The notes beneath the pieces were generated by a model that was not told the origin of the DNA, did not search any database, and worked only from the letters and a program-made list of their open reading frames with translations. From assembly GCA_039679715.1 (NCBI GenBank), contig JBDKUM010000235.1, positions 1-53,177 on the forward strand: 53,177 nt of DNA. Reading direction: 5' to 3'. Position 1 is the stretch's first letter; every line of letters starts with the position of its first letter. Shown here piece by piece: positions 2,844 to 51,172 of this stretch. Source of the DNA: Phycisphaerales bacterium. Its GTDB lineage: Bacteria; Planctomycetota; Phycisphaerae; Sedimentisphaerales; UBA12454. The position numbers and the translations under genes are program-made.

Positions 2844-3863
2844 ATGATTGTAATTATGAAACAAGGCGCTTCCCAGCAGGATGTTGCCAACGTAGTAAAA
2901 CTTGTAAATGAATATGGCTTGAAAGAGCATGTTATCGTCGGCACCAACCGCACGGTCATCGCATGTCTAGGCGATAAACGCAATGTCGATAAAGGCGCAA
3001 TTGAACATGCGTCGAATGTCGAACGCATAGTTCCGATTCTCGCACCATATAAAATCGCTTCACGCGAAGTAAAAAAAGAAAACACGCAAATAAAAATCGG
3101 CGACAAAGCTTTTCCGCTTGGCGGCCCGAAGGTCGGCATCATTGCAGGCCCATGTTCAGTCGAAAATGAAAAGCAGCTTTTGTACACCGCAGATAAAGTC
3201 GCCGCCGCAGGCTGCATCGGCCTTCGCGCAGGTGCGTTTAAACCTCGAACAAGCCCGTATGCTTTCCAGGGCCTTGGCATTGAAGGTTTGAAGTTGTTAG
3301 CTAAAGCGAAAAAGAACACAGGCCTCGCGGTCGTTACCGAAGTTGTCGCCGTTGAGCATATCGAGATTGTCGCCGAGTACGTCGATGTGCTTCAGGTCGG
3401 CGCACGAAATATGCAGCACTATCCATTGCTTGAAGCTCTGGGCAAAGTCAAAAAACCTGTTCTGCTCAAACGCGGCATGAGCGCCCAGCTCGATGAATTT
3501 CTGCTCGCCGCCGAATATATCATCAACGCCGGCAACACGCAGGTAATTCTCTGCGAACGCGGCATCAGGACTTTCGAAGATTATGTCCGCAACACATTGG
3601 CTCTTGCGATAGTGCCGGAGTTGAAAAGCAAAACACATTTGCCGGTTGTCGTCGACCCTTCGCACGGCACAGGTCATTCGCATTTGATTCCCGCAATGTG
3701 CAGGGCAGCGATTGCCGCCGGTGCAGATGGTCTGCTAATCGAATGCCACCACGATCCGCAGCATGCGTTAAGTGACGGCGCGCAATCGATAACGCCCGAA
3801 GCGCTTGAACAATTAATGAAGCAGATTAAAGCAATTGCAAAAGCAATCGACCGCGACGTGTAA
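2844..3863 (+). CDS. aroF: DAHP synthase (type I-beta, N-terminal regulatory domain)
   Basis: [36 protein letters not shown] and VDPSH motifs. Confidence 0.93.
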
Positions 3864-4067: not shown

Positions 4068-4703
4068 TTAAGTCAGTTCTACTGACCAGTATGCATGGTC
4101 GAGGAATTGTTTCCAGCTATGATACCTTTCGTGTGAAAGGTGCAGGTGAACAGTAGGATTGCGTTTCGGTTTGACAGGCACTTTAATCAGCGTCATATTC
4201 GCTTCTTTCGGCGTTCTGCCGCCTTTTTTCGCGTTACATTTCGTACACGCGCAAACTAAATTTTCCCATGTCGCAGCGCCGCCGGAACTTTTGGGAATGA
4301 CATGATCGAGAGATAATTCAGAAGTGGGGAATTTTTTACCGCAATATTGACAGCGATTGCTGTCGCGAGCGAAAACATTTCGCCTGTTAAACTTTACATC
4401 ATTGCGGGGAAGTCTGTCATAAAACAGCAGCCGCACGATTCTCGGAACCGCGATATTAAAATTGACCGTCGTAATCCAATCGTGCGCATTAGGCTCAAAC
4501 GTCAGTTTCATTGCGCTGATATCGCGCCAGCTTTCAAAATCGTAATTATAATATTGGCCTTGTTCGTAGGAAATGACTTCGGCAAGATCTCTGCAGAGCA
4601 GGCAAAGCGCCCGCTTGACATTTACAATGCGCAGCGGCATGTAGTGTTTGTTCAGAACAAGCACACTGCACGTTAAACCAAAATTTGGTTCTGCAAGTAA
4701 CAT
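4068..4703 (-). CDS. HNH endonuclease (McrA-like)
   Basis: VLVLN N-terminus; RD..CQYCG, LDHVIPKSSGG, WENLVCACTKCNAKKG. Confidence 0.9.
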   Translation of the reverse strand: MLLAEPNFGLTCSVLVLNKHYMPLRIVNVKRALCLLCRDLAEVISYEQGQYYNYDFESWRDISAMKLTFEPNAHDWITTVNFNIAVPRIVRLLFYDRLPRNDVKFNRRNVFARDSNRCQYCGKKFPTSELSLDHVIPKSSGGAATWENLVCACTKCNAKKGGRTPKEANMTLIKVPVKPKRNPTVHLHLSHERYHSWKQFLDHAYWSVELT

Positions 4704-8409: not shown

Positions 8410-9258
8410 TTGTCACATAAGATATTGTCTAAAAAGAACTTAAGTAAGGATGTCTTTATCGCGGATATTGAAGCCCCGCTGGTCGCTTCGGCAGCTAAAG
8501 CAGGGCAATTTGTAATTGTTTGTCTCAAAACATCTTATAGCGAGCGCATACCTCTTACCATAGCAGGAACTGACCTTAAGAATGGCACAATCCGGCTTGT
8601 CTGGCAGGCGATAGGCAAAAGTACTGTTGAATTAGGCAATATGCAGGTTGGCGATGAAGTTGAAAACATCCTCGGCCCGCTTGGCAAACCGACCCATATT
8701 GAAAAATTCGGTACAGTTCTTTGCGTTGGCGGAGGCATCGGCAACGCTCCTCTGCTTCCAATCGCCAAGGCCATGAAAGAAGCGGGCAATAAAGTTATAA
8801 GTATACTGGGAGCAAGAAATAAAGAGCTTTTGATTCTTGAAGATGATTTCAAAACCATTAGCGATGAACTTATTATAGTAACAGATGATGGCTCTTACGG
8901 TCGTAAAGCAGTCGTTACCGTCCCGCTTGACGAGATTTGCCAGAGAGAGAAAGTCGATCTGGTTGTCGCCATAGGCCCGACAATAATGATGAAATTCGCA
9001 AGTCTGGCAGCAGCCAAACATAACGTTCACGTTGTCGTATCTCTTAATACTATAATGATTGACGGTACAGGTATGTGCGGCGGATGTCGCGTTGAAGTCG
9101 GCGGAAAAACAAAATTCGTTTGCGTTGACGGCCCTGAATTCGACGGCCGGCAGGTCAATTTCGATTTAATGATGAAAAGAATGCAGGCATATAAAAAACA
9201 GGAACAGCAGGCTCTGGAACAATATAAACATAAATGCAAAATTGGACTTGAGAAATAA
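8410..9258 (+). CDS. NfnA/SudB-like FAD- and [2Fe-2S]-binding subunit
   Basis: ERIPLTI, GPLG, GGGIG, MIDGTGMCGGCRV and CVDGPEF motifs. Confidence 0.9.
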   Translation: MSHKILSKKNLSKDVFIADIEAPLVASAAKAGQFVIVCLKTSYSERIPLTIAGTDLKNGTIRLVWQAIGKSTVELGNMQVGDEVENILGPLGKPTHIEKFGTVLCVGGGIGNAPLLPIAKAMKEAGNKVISILGARNKELLILEDDFKTISDELIIVTDDGSYGRKAVVTVPLDEICQREKVDLVVAIGPTIMMKFASLAAAKHNVHVVVSLNTIMIDGTGMCGGCRVEVGGKTKFVCVDGPEFDGRQVNFDLMMKRMQAYKKQEQQALEQYKHKCKIGLEK

Positions 9259-10727
9259 TGAACGACGAACAATTGCTAGAAGAACTTTTGAAAAAACACA
9301 AAGCTGGAACCTTGAAACCAGCAGATAGGTATAACATTCCTCCGCAGGCAATGCCGCAGCAGGATGGCGCTGTTCGCCGTTCTAACGTAAGCGAAGTTGC
9401 GCAAGGTTACTCTGAAACACAAGCAAGGCTGGAAGCTCTCCGCTGCCTCGGCTGCAAAAATGCGCCATGTATGGAAGGCTGCCCGGTAAAAATAAAAATC
9501 AAAGATTTCATCGCCCAGATCGTTAATGGCGATTTCCAGAAAGCTCTGGATATTATTCGTGAAAACTCTCTTTTACCTGCTGTTTGCGGCAGAGTTTGCC
9601 CGCAGGAAGTCCAATGCCAACTGCCTTGCACAGTCGGCAAGAAATTCAAAGATGTGAATATGTCCGTTTCGATTGGCAGACTTGAAAGGTTTGTCGCCGA
9701 TTGGGGCAGAAAGCAAAAAGATAGTTCCGCACCTGCGATCGCGGCTCCAACAGGCAAAAAAGTTGCAATTTTAGGCGCAGGCCCCGGCGGAATTGTCGCC
9801 GCCGCCGATACCCGCAGAGCAGGGCATGATGTAACTGTTTTTGAAGCGTTCCACAAGCCCGGCGGTGTTATGGTCTACGGAATCCCTGAATTTCGTCTCC
9901 CAAAAGCGATAGTACAGGAGGAAATTGAGCAGCTTAAGAAGATGGGCGTTAAAATTATATGCAATTTTGTCGCAGGTCGAACCAAAACCATCAAAGATTT
10001 AATGCAAAAGGACGGTTTTGACGCTGTTTATGTAGGCGTAGGGGCGGGTTTGCCGATGTTTATGAACATCGAAGGCGAACATTTAATTGGCGTTTACAGT
10101 GCCAATGAATATTTAACCCGCGCAAATTTAATGCGTGCATATGACTTCGGTAAAGGCGCCGACACTCCGATTGCGATGTCTAAACGTGTCGCGGTTGTCG
10201 GAGGCGGAAACGTCGCGATGGATGCCGCAAGAACAGCCGTTAGATTAGGCGCAGAAAAGGTTTATCTGATTTATAGACGCAGCGAAAAAGAAATGCCCGC
10301 TCGTATCGAAGAGGTTCACCATGCAAAAGAAGAGGGCATTGAATTCCATCTCTTGCGAAATCCTAAACGAATCATTGGCAATGCGGAAGGCATTGTTACA
10401 GGCATTGAATGTTTGAAATACGAGCTTGGCGAACCGGATGCATCGGGCAGAAGAAGACCTGTCCCGATTGAAGGTTCAGAATTCACAATTGAAGTTGATA
10501 CGGTCGTTGTAGCGATAGGAAATGGCGCAAATCCGCTCATCGGCCAGACCACCCCCGGCCTTGAACTTACAAAGTGGGGTAATATCGTTGTTGATGAAAA
10601 ATGCGCAACTTCTATTAAAGGCGTCTACGCCGGTGGAGACATTGTTCTCGGTGCCGCGACTGTAATCCTTGCAATGGGTCAGGGCCGAACCGCCGCGGCG
10701 GCAATCAACGAATATTTAAAGAAATGA
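9258..10727 (+). CDS. NfnB/SudA-like (GltD-like) NADPH-dependent flavo-iron-sulfur subunit
   Basis: RCLGCKNAPCMEGCP, CGRVCPQEVQC, YGIPEFRLPK, GGGNVAMDAAR; overlaps the stop of the NfnA-like gene. Confidence 0.9.
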   Translation: MNDEQLLEELLKKHKAGTLKPADRYNIPPQAMPQQDGAVRRSNVSEVAQGYSETQARLEALRCLGCKNAPCMEGCPVKIKIKDFIAQIVNGDFQKALDIIRENSLLPAVCGRVCPQEVQCQLPCTVGKKFKDVNMSVSIGRLERFVADWGRKQKDSSAPAIAAPTGKKVAILGAGPGGIVAAADTRRAGHDVTVFEAFHKPGGVMVYGIPEFRLPKAIVQEEIEQLKKMGVKIICNFVAGRTKTIKDLMQKDGFDAVYVGVGAGLPMFMNIEGEHLIGVYSANEYLTRANLMRAYDFGKGADTPIAMSKRVAVVGGGNVAMDAARTAVRLGAEKVYLIYRRSEKEMPARIEEVHHAKEEGIEFHLLRNPKRIIGNAEGIVTGIECLKYELGEPDASGRRRPVPIEGSEFTIEVDTVVVAIGNGANPLIGQTTPGLELTKWGNIVVDEKCATSIKGVYAGGDIVLGAATVILAMGQGRTAAAAINEYLKK

Positions 10728-10769
10728 TTTTCGGATAAAGACTGTTGTTCACATTTTTTATTTCCTTAT

Positions 10770-10864
10770 GGAATCTCTACTAATTTTAAAGCAAGAGATT
10801 GCTTCGTCGTTTTTTGCGCTAAAAGCCCAAAAAACTCCTCGCAATGACATTATTAAAGATTTTC
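10770..10864. repeat. MITE/REP-like element family C (GAGATTGC...CGCAATGAC core with imperfect terminal inverted repeats)
   Basis: Same architecture at 33267, 39038, 49139 and 52993. Confidence 0.8.
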
Positions 10865-10875
10865 TTATATTTAAT

Positions 10876-11305
10876 AGGGTAAAGGTATAAGGTATAAAAA
10901 GGAAAGCTGAACTTCCAAGGTCTCAATGTAAAAAATTTTTAATTACCACAAATCAAACTTATCAAACAAAAATAACAGAGCCGGCAGCACAGCGGCAGAT
11001 AAAAGGAAAAATTAAATATTCCCAGTCGTAAAATACGCCGGGTTATTTAGTTTACTTTTTCCCAATCACGGTAAAAGTGTCGGGTTCTTTAGTTAGTTAA
11101 TTTTTCCCAGCCACGATAAAAAGTGCGGGGTTCTTTACTTAGTTACTTTTGCCGGTCACGATAAAAAGTGCCGGGTTCTTTGCTCTAATAACCCCGCTGA
11201 TTGAATCGCGGGCTAAGTTCTGTCGTTTTTGGGCTCGGCCAAAGACTGCCAGACTCTGTCAAATTTAAACGCGCATTAGATTTATACCCTATGACCTTCT
11301 ACCCT
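10876..11305 (-). ncRNA. Candidate ~430-nt structured non-coding RNA, family not recognised
   Basis: No ORF; nested long-range stems (11281-11305 with 10876-10898; 11246-11260 with 10974-10987) enclose five similar hairpins; G-U pairs favour the minus strand. Confidence 0.6.
11021..11212 (-). repeat. Five tandem bulged hairpins at 40-46 nt spacing
   Basis: Units at 11021-11042, 11061-11084, 11106-11130, 11152-11174 and 11193-11212 with A-rich linkers mostly ending in GAAC. Confidence 0.85.
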
Positions 11306-11321
11306 TAGGCGGAACTTGCGC
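11295..11321 (-). promoter_or_regulatory. Motif GCGCAAGTTC-N4-TAAGGGTAGAAGG shared with the portal-gene upstream region
   Basis: 22/27 identical to 49511-49537 with the same spacing. Confidence 0.5.
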
Positions 11322-11631
11322 GAATTTTAATGAAATTAGTGAAATTTTTTTTCGGATTTTTTGTAAGCGGCTGTCAAATAATACCAATTGGCATTATTAC
11401 TCCGCGTCGAGAGGTTTGTAAGTCATTGAGTTAAGCGGAGCTTAAGCTTCGCTTAAGCCGCGGACAACTTCTCCCCAAGGGACGCTACGCGGAGTATTTT
11501 TGGGATCCGTATAAAAATGAATTTTTTTTTGGAAATTTTGAAATCGCAAGTTTTTACCTGCGCGATTTTGCTAAATCAGATTTTAAGAGGTCGCCTTAAA
11601 TTCAAACCAAAATTAAAAATTCCAATTTACT

Positions 11632-11961
11632 TTATAAATCAGCTGCTTCAGATTTTCGGATCTCACCTTCGATTCGGTTTTTGCGGTCCCAAATTATTAA
11701 ATATGTTGTCAGGCGTATATGCGCCCATATTTTCATCAACGCGATATTTACAACTCCGACGACTGCTAAAAATAATCCCAAAAACAATTTTCTTATTTGA
11801 CTATCATTTGCGTTTAGAATCATACTAAGGCCGTCGAGTGTGATAAAGACTGAAATAATTAAAAAAATCCAATAAGTTATTTCCGTCTTAGTTACTTTTT
11901 TGAGAATGTCTTCGCACGTTGGCTGCTCCTCAAAAGCTTTTGCCCAATTAAAAAATCTCAT
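11632..11961 (-). CDS. Small hypothetical membrane protein (2 TM)
   Basis: Two hydrophobic segments; ATGA overlap with the upstream DUF2089-like gene. Confidence 0.7.
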   Translation of the reverse strand: MRFFNWAKAFEEQPTCEDILKKVTKTEITYWIFLIISVFITLDGLSMILNANDSQIRKLFLGLFLAVVGVVNIALMKIWAHIRLTTYLIIWDRKNRIEGEIRKSEAADL

Positions 11962-12269
11962 ATATTTTTCCCTTCATTATTTAAAGTTTCTTCATGTATT
12001 TTTAATAACGATTTTGCTGTAGCTAAATCAATTTTCCCTTCGATCACGAGCACTTGCAGTTTTTGGTGAAATTTTGATTTAGTTTTTTTTGAATCCAGGA
12101 TTTGTATTTTCTCGATCAGACGATTTAGTTTTATTCTGATAGTAGGATATGTAATAGTATATTGCTGCGCAACGTCCTTAAGCGAACCTGAAGCCAAAAG
12201 CAGCCTTTTTATAAATTGCCAATCTTCTTCATTTAAGCCTTTTGCCCAATCCGGAATTGTATTTTCCAT
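11958..12269 (-). CDS. DUF2089-family HTH protein
   Basis: LNEEDWQFIKRLLLASGSLK..YPTIRIKLNRLIEK pattern. Confidence 0.8.
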   Translation of the reverse strand: MENTIPDWAKGLNEEDWQFIKRLLLASGSLKDVAQQYTITYPTIRIKLNRLIEKIQILDSKKTKSKFHQKLQVLVIEGKIDLATAKSLLKIHEETLNNEGKNI

Positions 12270-12397
12270 CTTACAGCCTTCAATTATATACTTTAATAAT
12301 AGTAAAATACACTTTAATTTTATTAAAGCAAGAGAAATATTAATAAAATTAAAATAAATTTCAATTTTGTTAAAGAAGGGATTATTCGGTAAGCAGC

Positions 12398-13762
12398 TTA
12401 TTTCGTCATTTTCAAATCACTAATTACTATTCGATGATCAGAATTTATGGTCTTTTTTGCGTAAACAGCAATTGGCGAGTATTTATCATTTGCCCAGATT
12501 TGGTCTATTCTGAATAGCGGGACTGTATTTAAAGCGGTATGTCCCCAGCCGGTGCCGGCCTTGTTAAATGTGTCTTTAATGTGAGTTTTCAAAGCTTTAA
12601 GACAGCCATCATTTGAGGAAACATTAAAATCCCCGCCGAGAATTATGGGGGTATTTTTTGGAATGTTTTTAAGCTGTTCTGCAATGATGGCGACTTGTTT
12701 GCGTCGGGATTTCCTGTCATCAGCATGATTATGCCAGCAATCTGGCGAAAATAAATTTATATTAGCAACCGGCGGCTCAAGATGAATCGAAAATATATCA
12801 GTTTCAATTCCATTTTTCAATTTCGCATGAACCTGCGTAACAAACAAACTTTTAGGTTTTGAAAATTCGATTTTTTCAAATTTGCCATTTGCTATTATAG
12901 CTGTGTCTGCATCATAAGCGATTGCTGAATCGGAGCCAAAAAGCTTTGCGGCAAAATTCTCTAAAACTTCTTTTTTGGTTGGTATTTCCTGAAGTAAAAG
13001 GATATCAGGATGCAAGGGGATTACCTCCTGCATTGTTTCTGGATTTCCACCAAGACAATTTAAAGATATGACCCTCAATTTATTTTCCGCAGGTATCGAT
13101 TGCCATTCTTCATTTGAAACAAAAAATTGTCTTATGAAACTTCTCGGCTCATCTGCAAAAATAAAAAAGAAAACAGCCCATAATTGAATCATTAATATGC
13201 AAAATCTTTTGTTTAAAAATCGAATTAAGAGGGAAATAATTATGCCAGCTAAACCCCACGACCACGCAGGGAAAAAGGTCATTGCGGCCAAACTGTCGGG
13301 CTTTAAACTGTAAGCAAATGTCAGAAAAACCATTAACAGAAGAGAGATAGCAAAAGCTGCTTTTCCAATGAAAGGAAATTTTACTGATTTCATTTTTCTT
13401 TTTTGAAGGTAAAGAATTTTGTTGTCCTCAATCAGGAAAAAATCATTTTTCAGTATATTACCATTATATTTTATTCGGGTGAAATCTTTATTTACTTCGC
13501 ACGTTCCTTCATCAACGATTTCAGCGGTGCCGGTGTTTTTGTTGACAGGGCCTTGATACGTGAGGAATTTTTTATCGTGATCCTGGATTGGTGTTGCTTT
13601 GGTTTTTACAGGGTTTAACTTGTCGGAGTCTCCTGCTAATTTTTCAGGCGGATTTTCCAGTCTCCATGTTTTTAAAACATCTCCGTCTTCTATCATCAAA
13701 TCCCAATGAATATCATCTCCGCGGGTGTGTTTGTGAATAACAAACTGTCTCTGATTATGCAT
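12398..13762 (-). CDS. Apparent fusion: LigD-type 3'-phosphoesterase domain + 3 TM + EEP (endonuclease/exonuclease/phosphatase) domain
   Basis: FVIHKH..HWDLMIE..LKTW..DH...LTYQG N-terminus; LLQE, GGDFN, RIDQIW and SDHR in the C-terminus. Confidence 0.75.
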   Translation of the reverse strand: MHNQRQFVIHKHTRGDDIHWDLMIEDGDVLKTWRLENPPEKLAGDSDKLNPVKTKATPIQDHDKKFLTYQGPVNKNTGTAEIVDEGTCEVNKDFTRIKYNGNILKNDFFLIEDNKILYLQKRKMKSVKFPFIGKAAFAISLLLMVFLTFAYSLKPDSLAAMTFFPAWSWGLAGIIISLLIRFLNKRFCILMIQLWAVFFFIFADEPRSFIRQFFVSNEEWQSIPAENKLRVISLNCLGGNPETMQEVIPLHPDILLLQEIPTKKEVLENFAAKLFGSDSAIAYDADTAIIANGKFEKIEFSKPKSLFVTQVHAKLKNGIETDIFSIHLEPPVANINLFSPDCWHNHADDRKSRRKQVAIIAEQLKNIPKNTPIILGGDFNVSSNDGCLKALKTHIKDTFNKAGTGWGHTALNTVPLFRIDQIWANDKYSPIAVYAKKTINSDHRIVISDLKMTK

Positions 13763-13790
13763 ATTGCAAATTTTTAATTGTTAATTCTTA

Positions 13791-13933
13791 AAGGTGCCAC
13801 TAAAAATTATTTTTTTATCATTCGAAAGGTTTGGGCAAGATGGAATAATCACTTTTTTAAAGGATTTCTCCACTGCGCTGCGCTCCGGTCGAAATGACAT
13901 TTTCACGTTTATCCAATTTTTAGATGTTGCCTT
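13791..13933. repeat. MITE-like element with terminal inverted repeats and internal REP
   Basis: aaggtgccactaaaaatt ... aatttttagatgttgcctt enclosing gatttctcc..cggtcgaaatgac. Confidence 0.65.
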
Positions 13934-13972
13934 AATTTTGAATTAATTAAATTTAAAATTCAAAATTTAAAT

Positions 13973-14971
13973 TTATCCGAGCGTCTGAATTGCAGTAATC
14001 GCTACTGCGGCGACGATATCATCGCTGTTACAGCCGCGGGACAAATCGTTTACAGGTTTTGCGATACCCTGAAGAATTGGGCCGTAAGCGGCGTAACCCG
14101 CAAGTCTTTCGGTCATTTTATAACAGATGTTTCCGGCTCCTAAATCAGGGAAGATGAAAACATTGGCCTGACCTTTTACCGGACTGCCGGGAGCTTTTTT
14201 AGCAGCAACCTTTGGTACAAACGCCGCGTCGAATTGCAGTTCTCCGTCAATCGCATACTCGCCATCGAATTCTTTTTCGAGTTTGGCTTTGGCAAGTTCA
14301 GTTGCCTTTATCATTTTATCAGGGCCTGTGCCTTTGGCCGAACCTTTTGTTGAATATGAAAGCATCGCGATTTTCGGAACGAGGCCGAATTGTTTTGCTG
14401 TACGAGCTGTAGTCAATGTTATATCCGCAAGCTGCTCTGCTGTCGGGTCCTGGTTCAATCCAGAATCAGCGTACAGCAGTGTTGTTTCGCCTTTTGTCAT
14501 AAAGAACATGCTCGAGACTGTCTCAAGGCCTTTAGCTGCCTTGATTATTTGCAATGCAGGGCGAACGGTATCTGGTGTAGAATGAACGGCGCCGCTGACA
14601 AGGCCGTCGACTTCGCCAGTCTTGACCATCATTGTGCCGAAATAAACTTCATCTGTAACTATTTTTAGAGCGGCTTCGGGAGTGACTCCTTTGTTTTTGC
14701 GAAGTTCATAAAATTTTTCCGCGTATTCTTTTGTTTTGCTGCTTGTTTTCGGATTGATGATTGTGATGTCTGCTGTGTTTGCCCCCATTTTTTTAAGCTC
14801 GTTAGCGATTTTATTTTCATCGCCAATAATTGTGAGCTTTGCCATTTTTTTATCGGCTATTTTCTTAGCAGCCTCAATTGTCCTGGCATCATCGCCTTCC
14901 GGCAGAACAATATGCTTATAAAGAGAGGCTGCTCTTTCGAGTATCATTTGTGAAAAATCTTTTGTTGTCAT
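13973..14971 (-). CDS. pta: Phosphate acetyltransferase
   Basis: IVLPEG, LSYSTKGS, IDGELQFDAA, FPDLGAGNICYK and NDLSRGC motifs. Confidence 0.95.
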   Translation of the reverse strand: MTTKDFSQMILERAASLYKHIVLPEGDDARTIEAAKKIADKKMAKLTIIGDENKIANELKKMGANTADITIINPKTSSKTKEYAEKFYELRKNKGVTPEAALKIVTDEVYFGTMMVKTGEVDGLVSGAVHSTPDTVRPALQIIKAAKGLETVSSMFFMTKGETTLLYADSGLNQDPTAEQLADITLTTARTAKQFGLVPKIAMLSYSTKGSAKGTGPDKMIKATELAKAKLEKEFDGEYAIDGELQFDAAFVPKVAAKKAPGSPVKGQANVFIFPDLGAGNICYKMTERLAGYAAYGPILQGIAKPVNDLSRGCNSDDIVAAVAITAIQTLG

Positions 14972-23313: not shown

Positions 23314-23579
23314 ATATCAGCCTCTGCCATGAAAGATATGATGCATTATATAGTCATTTCATCCTATAAATATTTAATTCTGATTTACTTTTCAATTACT
23401 TTTATCACACTTTTTATCGCTTTCTGGATACTTATGGACTACTTTTTGACACTTTTTGAACACTTATTTCACACTTTTTTTCGCTTTTTTCACACTTTTT
23501 TGTGTCATTTTACATCGTTTTTTTTCAATTATGCGCAAGTTCCGGCAAAAATGCGCATGATAATAACTGCATCAGTTTG

Positions 23580-29427: not shown

Positions 29428-29500
29428 AAATGGGTACAGGCACATATAAATTATTTATCACCTATTGGCGACAAATAATTTAATGAGCCAGTCCCCATTT
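29428..29500. repeat. REP-like palindromic element family B (GGGTACAGGCAC...GAGCCAGTCCCC)
   Basis: Copies at 38120-38184, 41752-41864 and 49244-49307. Confidence 0.85.
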
Positions 29501-29542
29501 CAAAAACTTAAAACTAAAAACTCAAAACTAAGGACTAAAACT

Positions 29543-30385
29543 ATGTGGGATTATAATAAAAAAGTTATGGATTATTTTTTGAATCCTAAAAACGCGGGTG
29601 AAATTGAAAATCCAGACGGCGTGGGCGAAGAAGGTTCGCTTGCATGCGGCGATGCGTTGAAGCTGACTTTCAAACTGGACAAAGAAGGCAAAATCGCAGA
29701 TGCGAAATTCAAAACATTCGGCTGCGCAAGCGCGATTGCTTCGGCATCGATAATGACAGAAATGATAATCGGTCTGACGCTGGATGAGGCTTCGAAAATA
29801 ACCAATAAAGATATTGTTGATAAACTCGGGGGTCTGCCGGAACAGAAAATGCACTGTTCGGTTATGGGTATGGAAGCATTGCAGGCAGCGATTGCGAATT
29901 ATCATGGTAAAGGCAAACAAGTGAAAAAGCAGGAAGGCAAAATTGTTTGTACCTGCTTTGGCGTTACCGATAAGGAAATTGAAAAAGTTGTGCTGGAAAA
30001 TAACCTTGATTCAGTAGAGCAGGTTACGAATTACTGCAAGGCCGGCGGCGGATGCGGTTCATGCAGAGGCGAAATCCAGATGATAATCGATAGAGTCCGC
30101 GGCAAGGAAGGCAAAGGTACAATTCCGGCCGAAAAGCCAAAGAAATTAACGAATATTCAGAAGATTGGGCTTGTTCAAAAAACAATAAGTGAACAAATTC
30201 GGCCATTGCTTAAAGCTCACGGCGGTGATATCGATTTGATCGATGTCGACGGAAATAGAGTATTGGTCGCTTTTCGCGGAATGTGTTCGCAATGCCCGAC
30301 GGCGGAATTTACAATGAAGGACGTTGTTGAAGCCAGACTGCATGAGTTTGTCAGTGAAGATTTGATTGTTGAAGAACAAATGTGA
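29543..30385 (+). CDS. nifU: Three-domain Fe-S scaffold NifU
   Basis: IscU domain (CGD, FGC, KMHC), BFD-like domain (CTCF..CGSC), Nfu domain (GMCSQC); start MWDY at 29543. Confidence 0.95.
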   Translation: MWDYNKKVMDYFLNPKNAGEIENPDGVGEEGSLACGDALKLTFKLDKEGKIADAKFKTFGCASAIASASIMTEMIIGLTLDEASKITNKDIVDKLGGLPEQKMHCSVMGMEALQAAIANYHGKGKQVKKQEGKIVCTCFGVTDKEIEKVVLENNLDSVEQVTNYCKAGGGCGSCRGEIQMIIDRVRGKEGKGTIPAEKPKKLTNIQKIGLVQKTISEQIRPLLKAHGGDIDLIDVDGNRVLVAFRGMCSQCPTAEFTMKDVVEARLHEFVSEDLIVEEQM

Positions 30386-49566: not shown

Positions 49567-51090
49567 ATGGGATTCGATTTTACAAACTTTGAAACCACTG
49601 GTCTTAGCTCAAATTATATCGACTGGCTTGTTGATGAACAATGGGTCGATATGCAGAATCATTTCGGGAGATTATGGGATTATTATCAAAATCCAATGTA
49701 TTGTCCTGCGGGATTGTCGGCAGCGGACGCGAAAATGAATGAATCTGCTAAAACATACATTCAGGCGCAGGAGATAGGATTGCCGGCACGAATCACGGGT
49801 ATTAAGCGGACAACGAAAAGCGGTGTTGTCGGCGGGAAAGCGGCGGCGGATATAGAGAGAAAAGAAGTTGTTATTGAAAATGATATCGGCTGGCGAATAA
49901 ACGCGATGGTAGATTTTTTGTTTGGTAAAGGTGTGGATATCGTCAGCAGAGCGGAAGATACAAGCAGAAGAAAAGAAATTGATAAAATCATCAAATCTGT
50001 ATTTGACGCAAATGGGGGAGTAAGATTTTTCCAGGATATGGCAGTGCTGGGAGCTGTTTACGGGTTTGTCGACTGTATAGTACGGCCGGGGCAAAAAATA
50101 GCGGATTATTTACAAATGCCCAACATGAATTTAGGTGCTAACGAGTTAATGGAACTTATTAGTGACTGCAACATAGAATTGATTGAGGCTCAAAGAGCAT
50201 TGCCTATTCTAGACGAAAGAGATTATCGTAAAATTAATTTTTATGTTCAGCATTTTATTGAGCAGAAAAACGACATTGCATCAGAAGGAAATTTTTTAAG
50301 AAAATTACTTTCGCCGGGAAATGGTAATTCAGGGCGAAAATCGATAGCAGTTACGGAAATCATTTCTTCGGATTGGTGGCAGAGATATGAAGATAAAGAA
50401 CTTACCGCGGAAGGACCCAATATAATCGGCATACTGCCGGTGGTTCACATTCAAAATATAGCACAGCCATTATATTATGAGGGAATAAGTGATGTTGAGG
50501 CTCTCATTCCTTTGCAGGATGAATTGAATACGAGATTGAGCGACAGAGCAAGCAGGATAACTTTCCAGGCATTTAAGATGTATCTGGCGAAAGGAATCGA
50601 AGGGGTTGAGAACAGGGCTGTATCGCCGGGCAGAATGTGGTGTACGGATAACCCGGAAGCAAGTATTCAACAGTTCGGGGGAGATGGTAATTCGCCAAGT
50701 GAAGATTCGCATATAGCTGAAATACGTGAAGCATTGGATAAGACGAGCGGTGTAACGCCAGTTGCGGCGGGGGTCTTGAAAGACAAAATCGGAAATCTCA
50801 CAAGTGCGATCGCTTTGAAAATGACTTTGATGGGAATGCTCGCCAAGACTGAACGGAAGCATTACGCATACGGACAAGGCATTAAGGAAATCGCAGCAAT
50901 GATCATGCATGTGCTGGATGTGACGAAGATTTATCCAAATTCCAAAGATGAGAGGAATTTCGATGTGATTTTCCCAAGCCCATTGCCGGAGAATATGGCT
51001 GAAAAGCTTGAGGAGGCGAAAATGAAATTAGAGATTGGTGTTCGACAGGAACAGGTATTACGAGAGCTTGGATACGAGATGAAAGTGTAA
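49567..51090 (+). CDS. Phage portal protein (SPP1 gp6-like)
   Basis: 507 aa; VDFLFGKGV, N.IGILPVVHI.N, GISDVE.LI.LQDELN..LS and TSAIALK patterns of SPP1-type portals; RBS GGAG. Confidence 0.8.
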   Translation: MGFDFTNFETTGLSSNYIDWLVDEQWVDMQNHFGRLWDYYQNPMYCPAGLSAADAKMNESAKTYIQAQEIGLPARITGIKRTTKSGVVGGKAAADIERKEVVIENDIGWRINAMVDFLFGKGVDIVSRAEDTSRRKEIDKIIKSVFDANGGVRFFQDMAVLGAVYGFVDCIVRPGQKIADYLQMPNMNLGANELMELISDCNIELIEAQRALPILDERDYRKINFYVQHFIEQKNDIASEGNFLRKLLSPGNGNSGRKSIAVTEIISSDWWQRYEDKELTAEGPNIIGILPVVHIQNIAQPLYYEGISDVEALIPLQDELNTRLSDRASRITFQAFKMYLAKGIEGVENRAVSPGRMWCTDNPEASIQQFGGDGNSPSEDSHIAEIREALDKTSGVTPVAAGVLKDKIGNLTSAIALKMTLMGMLAKTERKHYAYGQGIKEIAAMIMHVLDVTKIYPNSKDERNFDVIFPSPLPENMAEKLEEAKMKLEIGVRQEQVLRELGYEMKV

Positions 51091-51172
51091 AGTAATAAGT
51101 TTAAAGTGAAAAGTGAAAAGTTGTGGACGCTTTTGCGAGAATGATAATGAAACATTTGTAGAAAGGTTTTTA

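Follow-up and report, generated by a model that had tools for sequence, protein, structure and literature searches.

The subject of this study is a row of five short hairpins on the minus strand at positions 11021-11212 of a 53,177-nucleotide (nt) stretch of DNA from a Phycisphaerales bacterium, together with the larger structured element that encloses them. The stretch, called the window here, is contig JBDKUM010000235.1 (C235), one of the 425 contigs that make up a 4.05-Mb draft bacterial genome. The hairpin array sits in a 904-nt intergenic region between convergent genes, with a gltD-like oxidoreductase gene (9258-10727, plus strand) on one side and an operon of a DUF2089 helix-turn-helix protein and a 109-amino-acid open reading frame (ORF) (11632-12269, minus strand) on the other. 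It begins 294 nt past the stop codon of the gltD-like gene and is overlapped by no ORF of 40 amino acids or more. The whole element (10973-11261, minus strand, 289 nt) consists of a closing helix around the five hairpins and is treated here as a candidate noncoding RNA.

All five hairpins have the same shape, a GC-rich lower stem of 4-5 base pairs (bp) that starts with CC, a single bulged purine on the 3' side, an upper stem of 3 bp and a U-rich loop. Their letters are exactly those reported in an earlier note on this DNA, and the A-rich linker AAAAGUAACUAAGUAAAGAAC quoted there is also in place. H1 (11212-11193, minus strand as for all hairpins that follow) reads CCCGC-GAU-uca-AUC-A-GCGGG, with 5 bp, a bulged A, 3 bp and the loop UCA, and has an energy of -8.6 kcal/mol that is equal on both strands. 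Despite its like shape, H1 does not align with H2-H5 and is unrelated in sequence to the 45-nt unit, a hairpin plus an A-rich linker, of which H2-H5 are tandem copies. H2 (11174-11152; CCGG-CAC-uuuuuauc-GUG-A-CCGG) is the first copy, with 57.3 bits to a covariance model of the unit, and UAGAGCAAAGAAC precedes it. The second copy, H3 (11130-11106, 58.9 bits), has one C.U mismatch and a bulged G and is the weakest hairpin at -5.9 kcal/mol. The third, H4 (11084-11061, 55.6 bits), contains one G.U pair and a position at which both partners have changed, so that G-C has become A-U, while the fourth and most diverged copy, H5 (11042-11021, 47.2 bits), has the upper stem CGU/ACG instead of CAC/GUG as well as one G.U pair. 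The linkers between the hairpins are 19-22 nt long, A-rich and mutually alike. Tandem Repeats Finder gave a period of 45 nt, 3.0 copies, 83% matches and a score of 178 at 11043-11181, and direct-repeat families spaced 45-46 nt agree with the 45-nt period.

The earlier note had proposed a descriptor search for the hairpin elsewhere in the genome, and this search set the array apart. Using a strict descriptor (CC-start, lower stem of 4-5 bp, upper stem of 3 bp, loop of 3-9 nt and one bulged purine on the 3' side), the search of the whole genome on both strands gave 573 rows, with a hairpin counted twice if it matched in both its 4-bp and its 5-bp form, and the sole cluster with at least three matches per 250 nt was the array at 11021-11212. 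Four of the five hairpins match the descriptor, H3 being excluded by its mismatch. Tandem Repeats Finder identified 15 arrays in the whole genome with a period of 25-90 nt and at least 2.5 copies, and the one at 11043-11181 alone is made of hairpin plus linker. The other two of these 15 with units folding below -15 kcal/mol are an array like those of clustered regularly interspaced short palindromic repeats (CRISPR), at C143:7891-8120 with a 65-nt period and the hairpin repeat GTCACGCCCTTCGCGGGCGTGTGGATTGAAAC, and a 68-nt tandem repeat at C169:10440-10740 with 4.4 copies and 94% identity. A sliding-window scan for generic hairpins was too unspecific, with 17152 loci and 439 clusters of at least four (1167 of at least three). 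The hairpin array is real and not a chance event.

The closing helix joins 11261-11235 with 10973-10999 through 23 pairs. Its 5' arm begins with UGACAGAGUCUGGCAGUC, its 3' arm carries CUGCCGGCUCUGUUA, and the duplex energy of -30.2 kcal/mol was reached by 0 of 2000 shuffled arms. A U-rich tail, UUUUUGUUUGA, stands right after the 3' arm at 10972-10962. The fold of the whole element (301 nt) has an energy of -92.8 kcal/mol and a z-score of -4.44, a value matched by 0 of 100 shuffles. The minimum-energy folds keep H2, H4 and H5 in the form described above, and in place of H1 and H3 they have a long-range H1:H3 pairing. The motif GGCTCTGTTATTTT of the 3' arm was found at only three places among 40 of 92 rows of a regular-expression search that allowed up to two mismatches, namely the window locus, a paralogous locus on contig C183 and a different context on C169, and the motif CGCGCA[AG]GT has 92 occurrences, often as one half of a hairpin. 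Upstream of the element, at 11330-11262 on the minus strand, lies a promoter-like box composed in order of CGCGCAAGTTC, CTAA, TAGAAGGT, TATAAA, GCGCG and TAAATTTG. This box is kept in the C183 paralogue. In the relative G004 it stands some 75 nt in front of a gene whose protein product belongs to no family. A strict inverted-repeat search for further elements with a closing helix returned 0 and missed both known loci too, and is hence uninformative.

Outside the window the genome matches the unit at just one place, the C183 locus, where a single copy occupies C183:2003-2042. With 150 of 993 candidates from the genome scored, the unit covariance model recovered only its five training sequences, which lie at two loci. 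The window and C183 loci are colinear over about 210 alignment columns, reaching beyond the inverted repeat. In both, the upstream box comes first, an ACAGAG(Y)C arm and a hairpin (H1 in the window) come next, and the unit stands after an identical TAGAGCAAAGAAC, with GGCUCUGUUAUUUU on the 3' side; the UAGAGCAAAGAAC that precedes H2 is also identical in the paralogue. No place other than these two has TAGAGCAAAGAAC or the box motif in exact form. The ACAGAG segment of each locus is paired to a GGCUCUGU segment, and the C183 closing helix has 19 pairs and an energy of -25.4 kcal/mol, which again 0 of 2000 shuffled arms reached, with a z-score of -5.65 for the fold of the whole C183 element. The H1 position in C183 holds a different, unbulged 9-bp hairpin, and the inverted repeats of the two loci are unlike except for a short core, yet the upstream box outside them is conserved. 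No neighbouring gene families are common to the two paralogues, which lie between the gltD-like gene and the DUF2089 operon in the window and between mraZ and an N-acetyltransferase gene in C183. The two loci form a two-member family and not a multi-copy mobile element, with one hairpin module in C183 against four in the window.

The paralogues also agree on the strand from which an RNA would be read. All 10 of the 10 G.U pairs are found in the minus sense of the window. The window closing helix contributes four of them and the C183 helix three, and H4, H5 and the C183 unit have one apiece. Read from the opposite strand, these would turn into A.C mismatches, and pairs of the reverse pattern number 0. 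The closing helices are 6-8 kcal/mol better on the minus sense (-30.2 versus -22.2 for the window and -25.4 versus -19.2 for C183), and H4, H5 and the C183 unit are weaker by 2.5-4.9 kcal/mol on the other strand, with minus and plus values of -7.4 and -4.9 kcal/mol for H4 and -9.7 and -5.7 kcal/mol for H5. The fold of the array (221 nt) has a z-score of -4.39 on the minus strand, with 0 of 200 shuffles as good, and of -2.09 on the plus strand, with 4 of 200. Taken together, the G.U bias, the helix and hairpin energies and the fold z-scores favour an RNA read from the minus strand.

The earlier note had also described the stems as covarying, and this description stands in part. Pairing is kept through changes on both sides of the stem, from G-C to A-U in H4 and at two pairs in H5. 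However, H2-H4 are near-identical hairpins that arose by recent tandem copying, so that their shared CAC/GUG stems do not represent independent covariation, and H1 has no homology to the other hairpins. Across the five homologous units 94.9% of cells pair and two pairs have double changes, and a third double change, in the upper stem of H5, was masked by a gap in the MAFFT alignment. Pairing is maintained better than chance, on very few and closely related sequences.

Sequence of the array was found in a wastewater metatranscriptome (run X1), which contains a small share of the stretch. Between 10400 and 12300 the only contigs with 0 differences were those at 11082-11169 (88 nt) and 11140-11251 (112 nt). 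Neither flanking gene was covered, nor was 10461-11081, and a 33-nt piece at 10428-10460 differs at three positions and then continues into sequence unlike the window; the uncovered parts of the stretch in this run are not evidence of silence. The two contigs fit, if thinly, an abundant short RNA.

Our best explanation of these data, which we hold tentatively and at a little less than even confidence, is that the element is a young, lineage-restricted structured small RNA in which the hairpin module was amplified from one copy to four. The array would be the core of a candidate noncoding RNA of about 290 nt from the minus strand (10973-11261), with putative 5' and 3' ends that pair in a long helix followed by the U-rich tail, and the helix would enclose H1 and the module of bulged hairpin and A-rich linker. 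The genome would possess two such genes, and the module would have been tandemly duplicated to four in the window copy while C183 kept one. The recurrence of identical bulged hairpins on a closed scaffold suggests several binding sites for one and the same protein. Each bulged hairpin may be recognised by a common RNA-binding protein or by a single subunit of an oligomeric one, and the RNA may serve as a multivalent sponge or scaffold whose capacity has grown with copy number. Such a multivalent protein-binding, sponge or scaffold role is the most plausible mode of action, with a probability well below even. Distinctly doubtful is a fuller scenario for the birth of such a sponge or scaffold, in which a one-site small RNA was duplicated, the module of the new copy was amplified to four, selection preserved pairing by way of G.U and compensatory changes and the partner is neither CsrA-like nor Hfq-like, or in which the CACUUUUU loops act as multiple seeds against AAAAGUG-repeat elements.

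The element is in no known family, and its likeness to repeat-built regulatory RNAs is one of architecture only. Rfam at gathering thresholds found only transfer RNA (tRNA) in the whole window, and at E values up to 10 it gave only chance matches in 10650-11700 and at the C183 locus. A pattern scan of public genomes was too loose; its 119 stretches were mostly a conserved Collinsella site and ordinary terminators and included no arrays. The unit model gave two weak matches (27.8 and 21.7 bits) on 30 of the listed loci, and a Fibrobacter match from the same scan was rejected as an ordinary terminator. In metagenomes there were 0 matches to a two-unit pattern, and a 19-mer common to both paralogues gave 15 loci that all scored 19.9 bits or less, versus 47-59 for true units. 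The viral contigs yielded 48 single sites, 14 of which scored 22-28 bits, a score inflated by the pattern, and two examined examples were unrelated. When the C183 locus was compared with the family genomes by blastn, only an AT-rich low-complexity stretch was aligned; blastn against phage and plasmid records gave no match, and no description of such an array was found in those parts of the literature that our search reached.

A different row of hairpins was observed in the relative G002, where four perfect 7-9-bp hairpins (L144 3147-3249) follow the gltD-like orthologue at the same relative position as the window array. Hairpins 1 and 3 of this row differ by a compensatory pair, and one of the hairpins has CCCAGCCACGA in common with H3. 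The linkers are A-rich on the sense strand of the gene, which is the other strand than in the window. Compared by sequence, the row may be taken as a hint rather than homology to the window array.

Several observations weigh against the small RNA explanation. Among 25 further genomes of the family, with 150 candidates scored in each, 0 matched the unit covariance model, and when public genomes, metagenomes and viral contigs were scanned by pattern, the rows returned were only chance or unrelated sites. Because no relative of the unit was found, the unit has no deep conservation or independent covariation. The covariation values were reached by 23 of 500 shuffles, which on five sequences is statistically weak, and the units, being 83% alike, are young copies that inherited much of their likeness. 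The upstream region has no clear sigma-70 -35/-10 pair, and no promoter or terminator is confidently callable for the element. Hfq was not found in the genome and no partner protein was identified. The metatranscriptome evidence is thin, as it consists of Logan contigs of one run with a depth of 2-4.6 that are strandless and may reflect DNA carry-over, and the contig at 11140-11251 has adapters at both ends and is perhaps a single amplified molecule. On the plus strand, UUCUUUA/G follows each hairpin, a GC hairpin with UUCUUUG also lies downstream of a tRNA-Arg gene on C70, and H2 and H3 are slightly more stable. Finally, the intergenic region is crowded with dispersed repeats (10766-10875 and 11375-11468).

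This last point bears on the alternative that survives best, namely that the array is a selfish or neutral DNA repeat, a minisatellite within an element that resembles a miniature inverted-repeat transposable element (MITE) with terminal inverted repeats, incidentally transcribed and without RNA function, in which the hairpins persist as the copies are young. At least two other families of dispersed repeats, with many copies in the genome and genus, occupy the same intergenic region, and heptamer repeats are present there as well. The element is bounded by an imperfect inverted repeat of 23 pairs, like the terminal inverted repeats of a MITE, and GC-rich imperfect palindromes in intergenic tandem clusters are also typical of the repetitive extragenic palindromic (REP) sequences and bacterial interspersed mosaic elements that the array resembles. 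It is confined to one genome, and the closest relatives, with gltD-like orthologues 88-92% identical, have nothing array-like after the gene. The likeness among the copies is only 83%, and the stem of H3 is disrupted by a mismatch. However, the units number five at two loci, not the tens to hundreds of REP sequences, and there is no multi-copy family of near-identical copies. No target-site duplication was seen in the flanks, and no transposase lies near the array. Moreover, the inverted repeats diverge between the loci save for the short core although the box outside them is conserved, the 10-to-0 bias of G.U pairs towards one strand is unexpected for palindromes that act at the DNA level, and pairing was kept through three double changes. 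A neutral repeat is rather unlikely on this evidence, though it is the most probable of the alternatives.

The dispersed repeats themselves were examined in the related genomes. The repeat at 11375-11468 is about 90 nt long, with inverted ends (TACTCCGCG/CGCGGAGTA) and a MITE- or REP-like look; among 12 matches scored it has nine further copies in the genome (81-95% identical), and shorter matches were found in G001, G003, G006 and G018. The repeat at 10766-10875 (GTCATTGCGAGGAG...CGACGAAGCAATC, minus strand) has copies on C379 and C419 and many in G001, G006 and G007, and hairpin elements (GTCATTCCCGCGAAAGCGGGAATC) related to it occur after the orthologous gene in G002, G010 and G004. In G005 and G011 (loci L147 and L148) the gene order is gltD-like, LigD_N-like ORF and pta. 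Compared with these two genomes, the window has about 1.6 kb extra at 10728-12397, made up of the repeat-rich intergenic region, the 109-amino-acid ORF and the DUF2089 gene. The LigD_N domain of the window is fused to an endonuclease/exonuclease/phosphatase domain (12398-13762), and the GC content falls to 0.345 at 12001-14000. No hairpin array follows the DUF2089 homologues of G002 and G004.

Heptamer direct repeats are found in intergenic parts of the window, with the motifs ATAAGGT, AAATTTA, AAAAACT and AAAGTGA at 10874-10897, 13949-13975, 29502-29540 and 51082-51121. The relative G002 has CAGTTAT four times (L144 about 3045-3072), with TAACTGA as reverse complement, and intergenic TAACTGA repeats are described in Beggiatoaceae and others in a published study (PMC4679880). 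The NifU ORF as listed (29465-30385) has a TTG start and takes in the AAAAACT heptamer repeat at 29502-29540. The match to the NifU profile starts at residue 27, and the true start codon therefore probably lies beyond that repeat.

A second alternative is that the hairpins work on the plus strand, as weak intrinsic terminators or as hairpins that stabilise the 3' end of the transcript of the gltD-like gene (9258-10727). The UUCUUUA/G tails, the similar arrangement after the tRNA-Arg gene on C70 and the plus-strand stability of H2 and H3 all speak for this, as does the unlike row of four hairpins that occupies this position behind the orthologous gene of G002. The distance of 294 nt between the stop codon and the array argues against it, as do the six pairs of the window element that become A.C on the plus strand, where H4 and H5 lose 2.5-4.0 kcal/mol, and the plus-strand fold z-score of only -2.09. 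The RNA-library contigs are also unconnected to the gene, with no cover at 10461-11081. Among the terminators visible after 52 tRNA genes, several differ from the array hairpins in that their stems are long and perfect and their U runs uninterrupted, and a terminator consensus scan called none of the array hairpins, whose plus-strand tail is UUCUUU and not an unbroken U run. A terminator or stabilising function on the plus strand is quite unlikely.

A third alternative keeps the RNA on the minus strand and has it act by base pairing through repeated seeds. The sequence CACUUUUU, which spans the upper stem and loop of H2-H4, would pair with AAAAAGUG, an 11-nt-period motif of a dispersed intergenic element. 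It is found in H2 and H3, with CACUUUU in H4, and the genome has 23 clusters of at least three AAAAGTG, most of them in one dispersed element and one of them in the window at 23450-23499. However, pairing of 7-8 bases to a common A/T-rich word could easily be chance, given that AAAAGTG occurs 488 times and CACTTTT 437 times, and the exact word is missing from H5 and from the C183 unit. Seed pairing is highly improbable as the function of the repeats. The dispersed intergenic element, with AAAAGTG/AAAAGCG at an 11-nt period, occurs at 23398-23511 and at 22 other places in the genome, often directly after ACTTGCGCGTTCTTTGAA.

Comparison with known systems further limits what the small RNA could be. 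The earlier note had likened the array to CsrB-type sponges, and CsrB and RsmZ are indeed stand-alone noncoding RNAs of many short, similar hairpins with single-stranded linkers in which valency scales with the number of repeats, but the loops of the array are U-rich without GGA and its stems have a 3' bulged purine. An exposed GGA occurs in 0 of 5 loops and 0 of 4 linkers, which makes a Csr-type sponge unlikely; GGGAA is present at the 3' base of H3, H4 and H5 only, with its Gs paired. CsrA is encoded twice in the genome, above the Pfam cut-off (C155:21559-21717 and C367:2495-2638), and the Rfam Csr/Rsm models gave no match in the window. ToxI, the RNA of type III toxin-antitoxin systems, is likewise a noncoding transcript with a tandem direct repeat of a short RNA unit (about 36-45 nt), and each ToxI unit is thought to bind one protein, but the units of the array are simple hairpins. 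No ToxN-like toxin was found, as no minus-strand ORF of at least 40 amino acids lies between 11020 and 10728 and the flanking ORFs have no ToxN-like family; the ORF at 11632-11961, upstream of the array on the minus strand, belongs to no family. The linkers differ from CRISPR spacers, being 19-22 nt long and mutually alike, and no cas family was found among the neighbouring ORFs scanned. A closing helix is shared with retrons, but no reverse transcriptase is present among the flanking ORFs.

The earlier note had suggested a phage setting, with portal, scaffold and capsid proteins, packaging and coat-protein operators, and this is not supported and should be dropped. The operators of MS2 and PP7 are single sites in the genomes of single-stranded RNA phages with the bulge on the 5' side of the stem. 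They resemble the array in being short hairpins with a single bulged purine that a protein could read, whereas the array has five sites in a bacterial chromosome and the bulge is on the 3' side in 5 of 5 (a G in H3). A scan against PHROGs of four proteins (three from the window ORFs at 11632-13762, which lie upstream of the array in the minus-strand sense, and one from the locus of a relative) gave no match. A phage packaging signal or coat-protein operator array has only the general likeness of a bulged-purine hairpin in its favour, and its probability is negligible given double-stranded bacterial chromosomal DNA with housekeeping neighbours and no phage genes around, the lack of any match in phage records or of related arrays in viral contigs, and a bulge on the 3' side.

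The other genes of the window are of the housekeeping kind (cysK, cysE, nadA, nifU/nifS, rlmN, pta, surE, Y-family polymerase, HU and tRNA-Arg). A 211-amino-acid ORF at 4068-4703 on the minus strand has an HNH endonuclease domain. Its best NCBIfam match is the HNH region of IscB, with 56.7 bits against a cut-off of 175; as this is far below the cut-off, an assignment to IscB was rejected and the product is a stand-alone HNH protein.

The data presented in this study make the element a credible and well-supported new small RNA candidate, and not a new principle. Three things limit the finding, namely that it is confined to one genome, that the expression evidence is thin and that it lacks a partner or target. 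Should the RNA be real and its repeated bulged hairpins bind a protein, a poorly studied uncultured lineage would have a multi-site regulatory RNA that stands outside the Csr/Rsm family. If this is true, the two paralogues of one genome, one with a single site and the other with four, would provide a rare direct view of how valency grows by tandem duplication.

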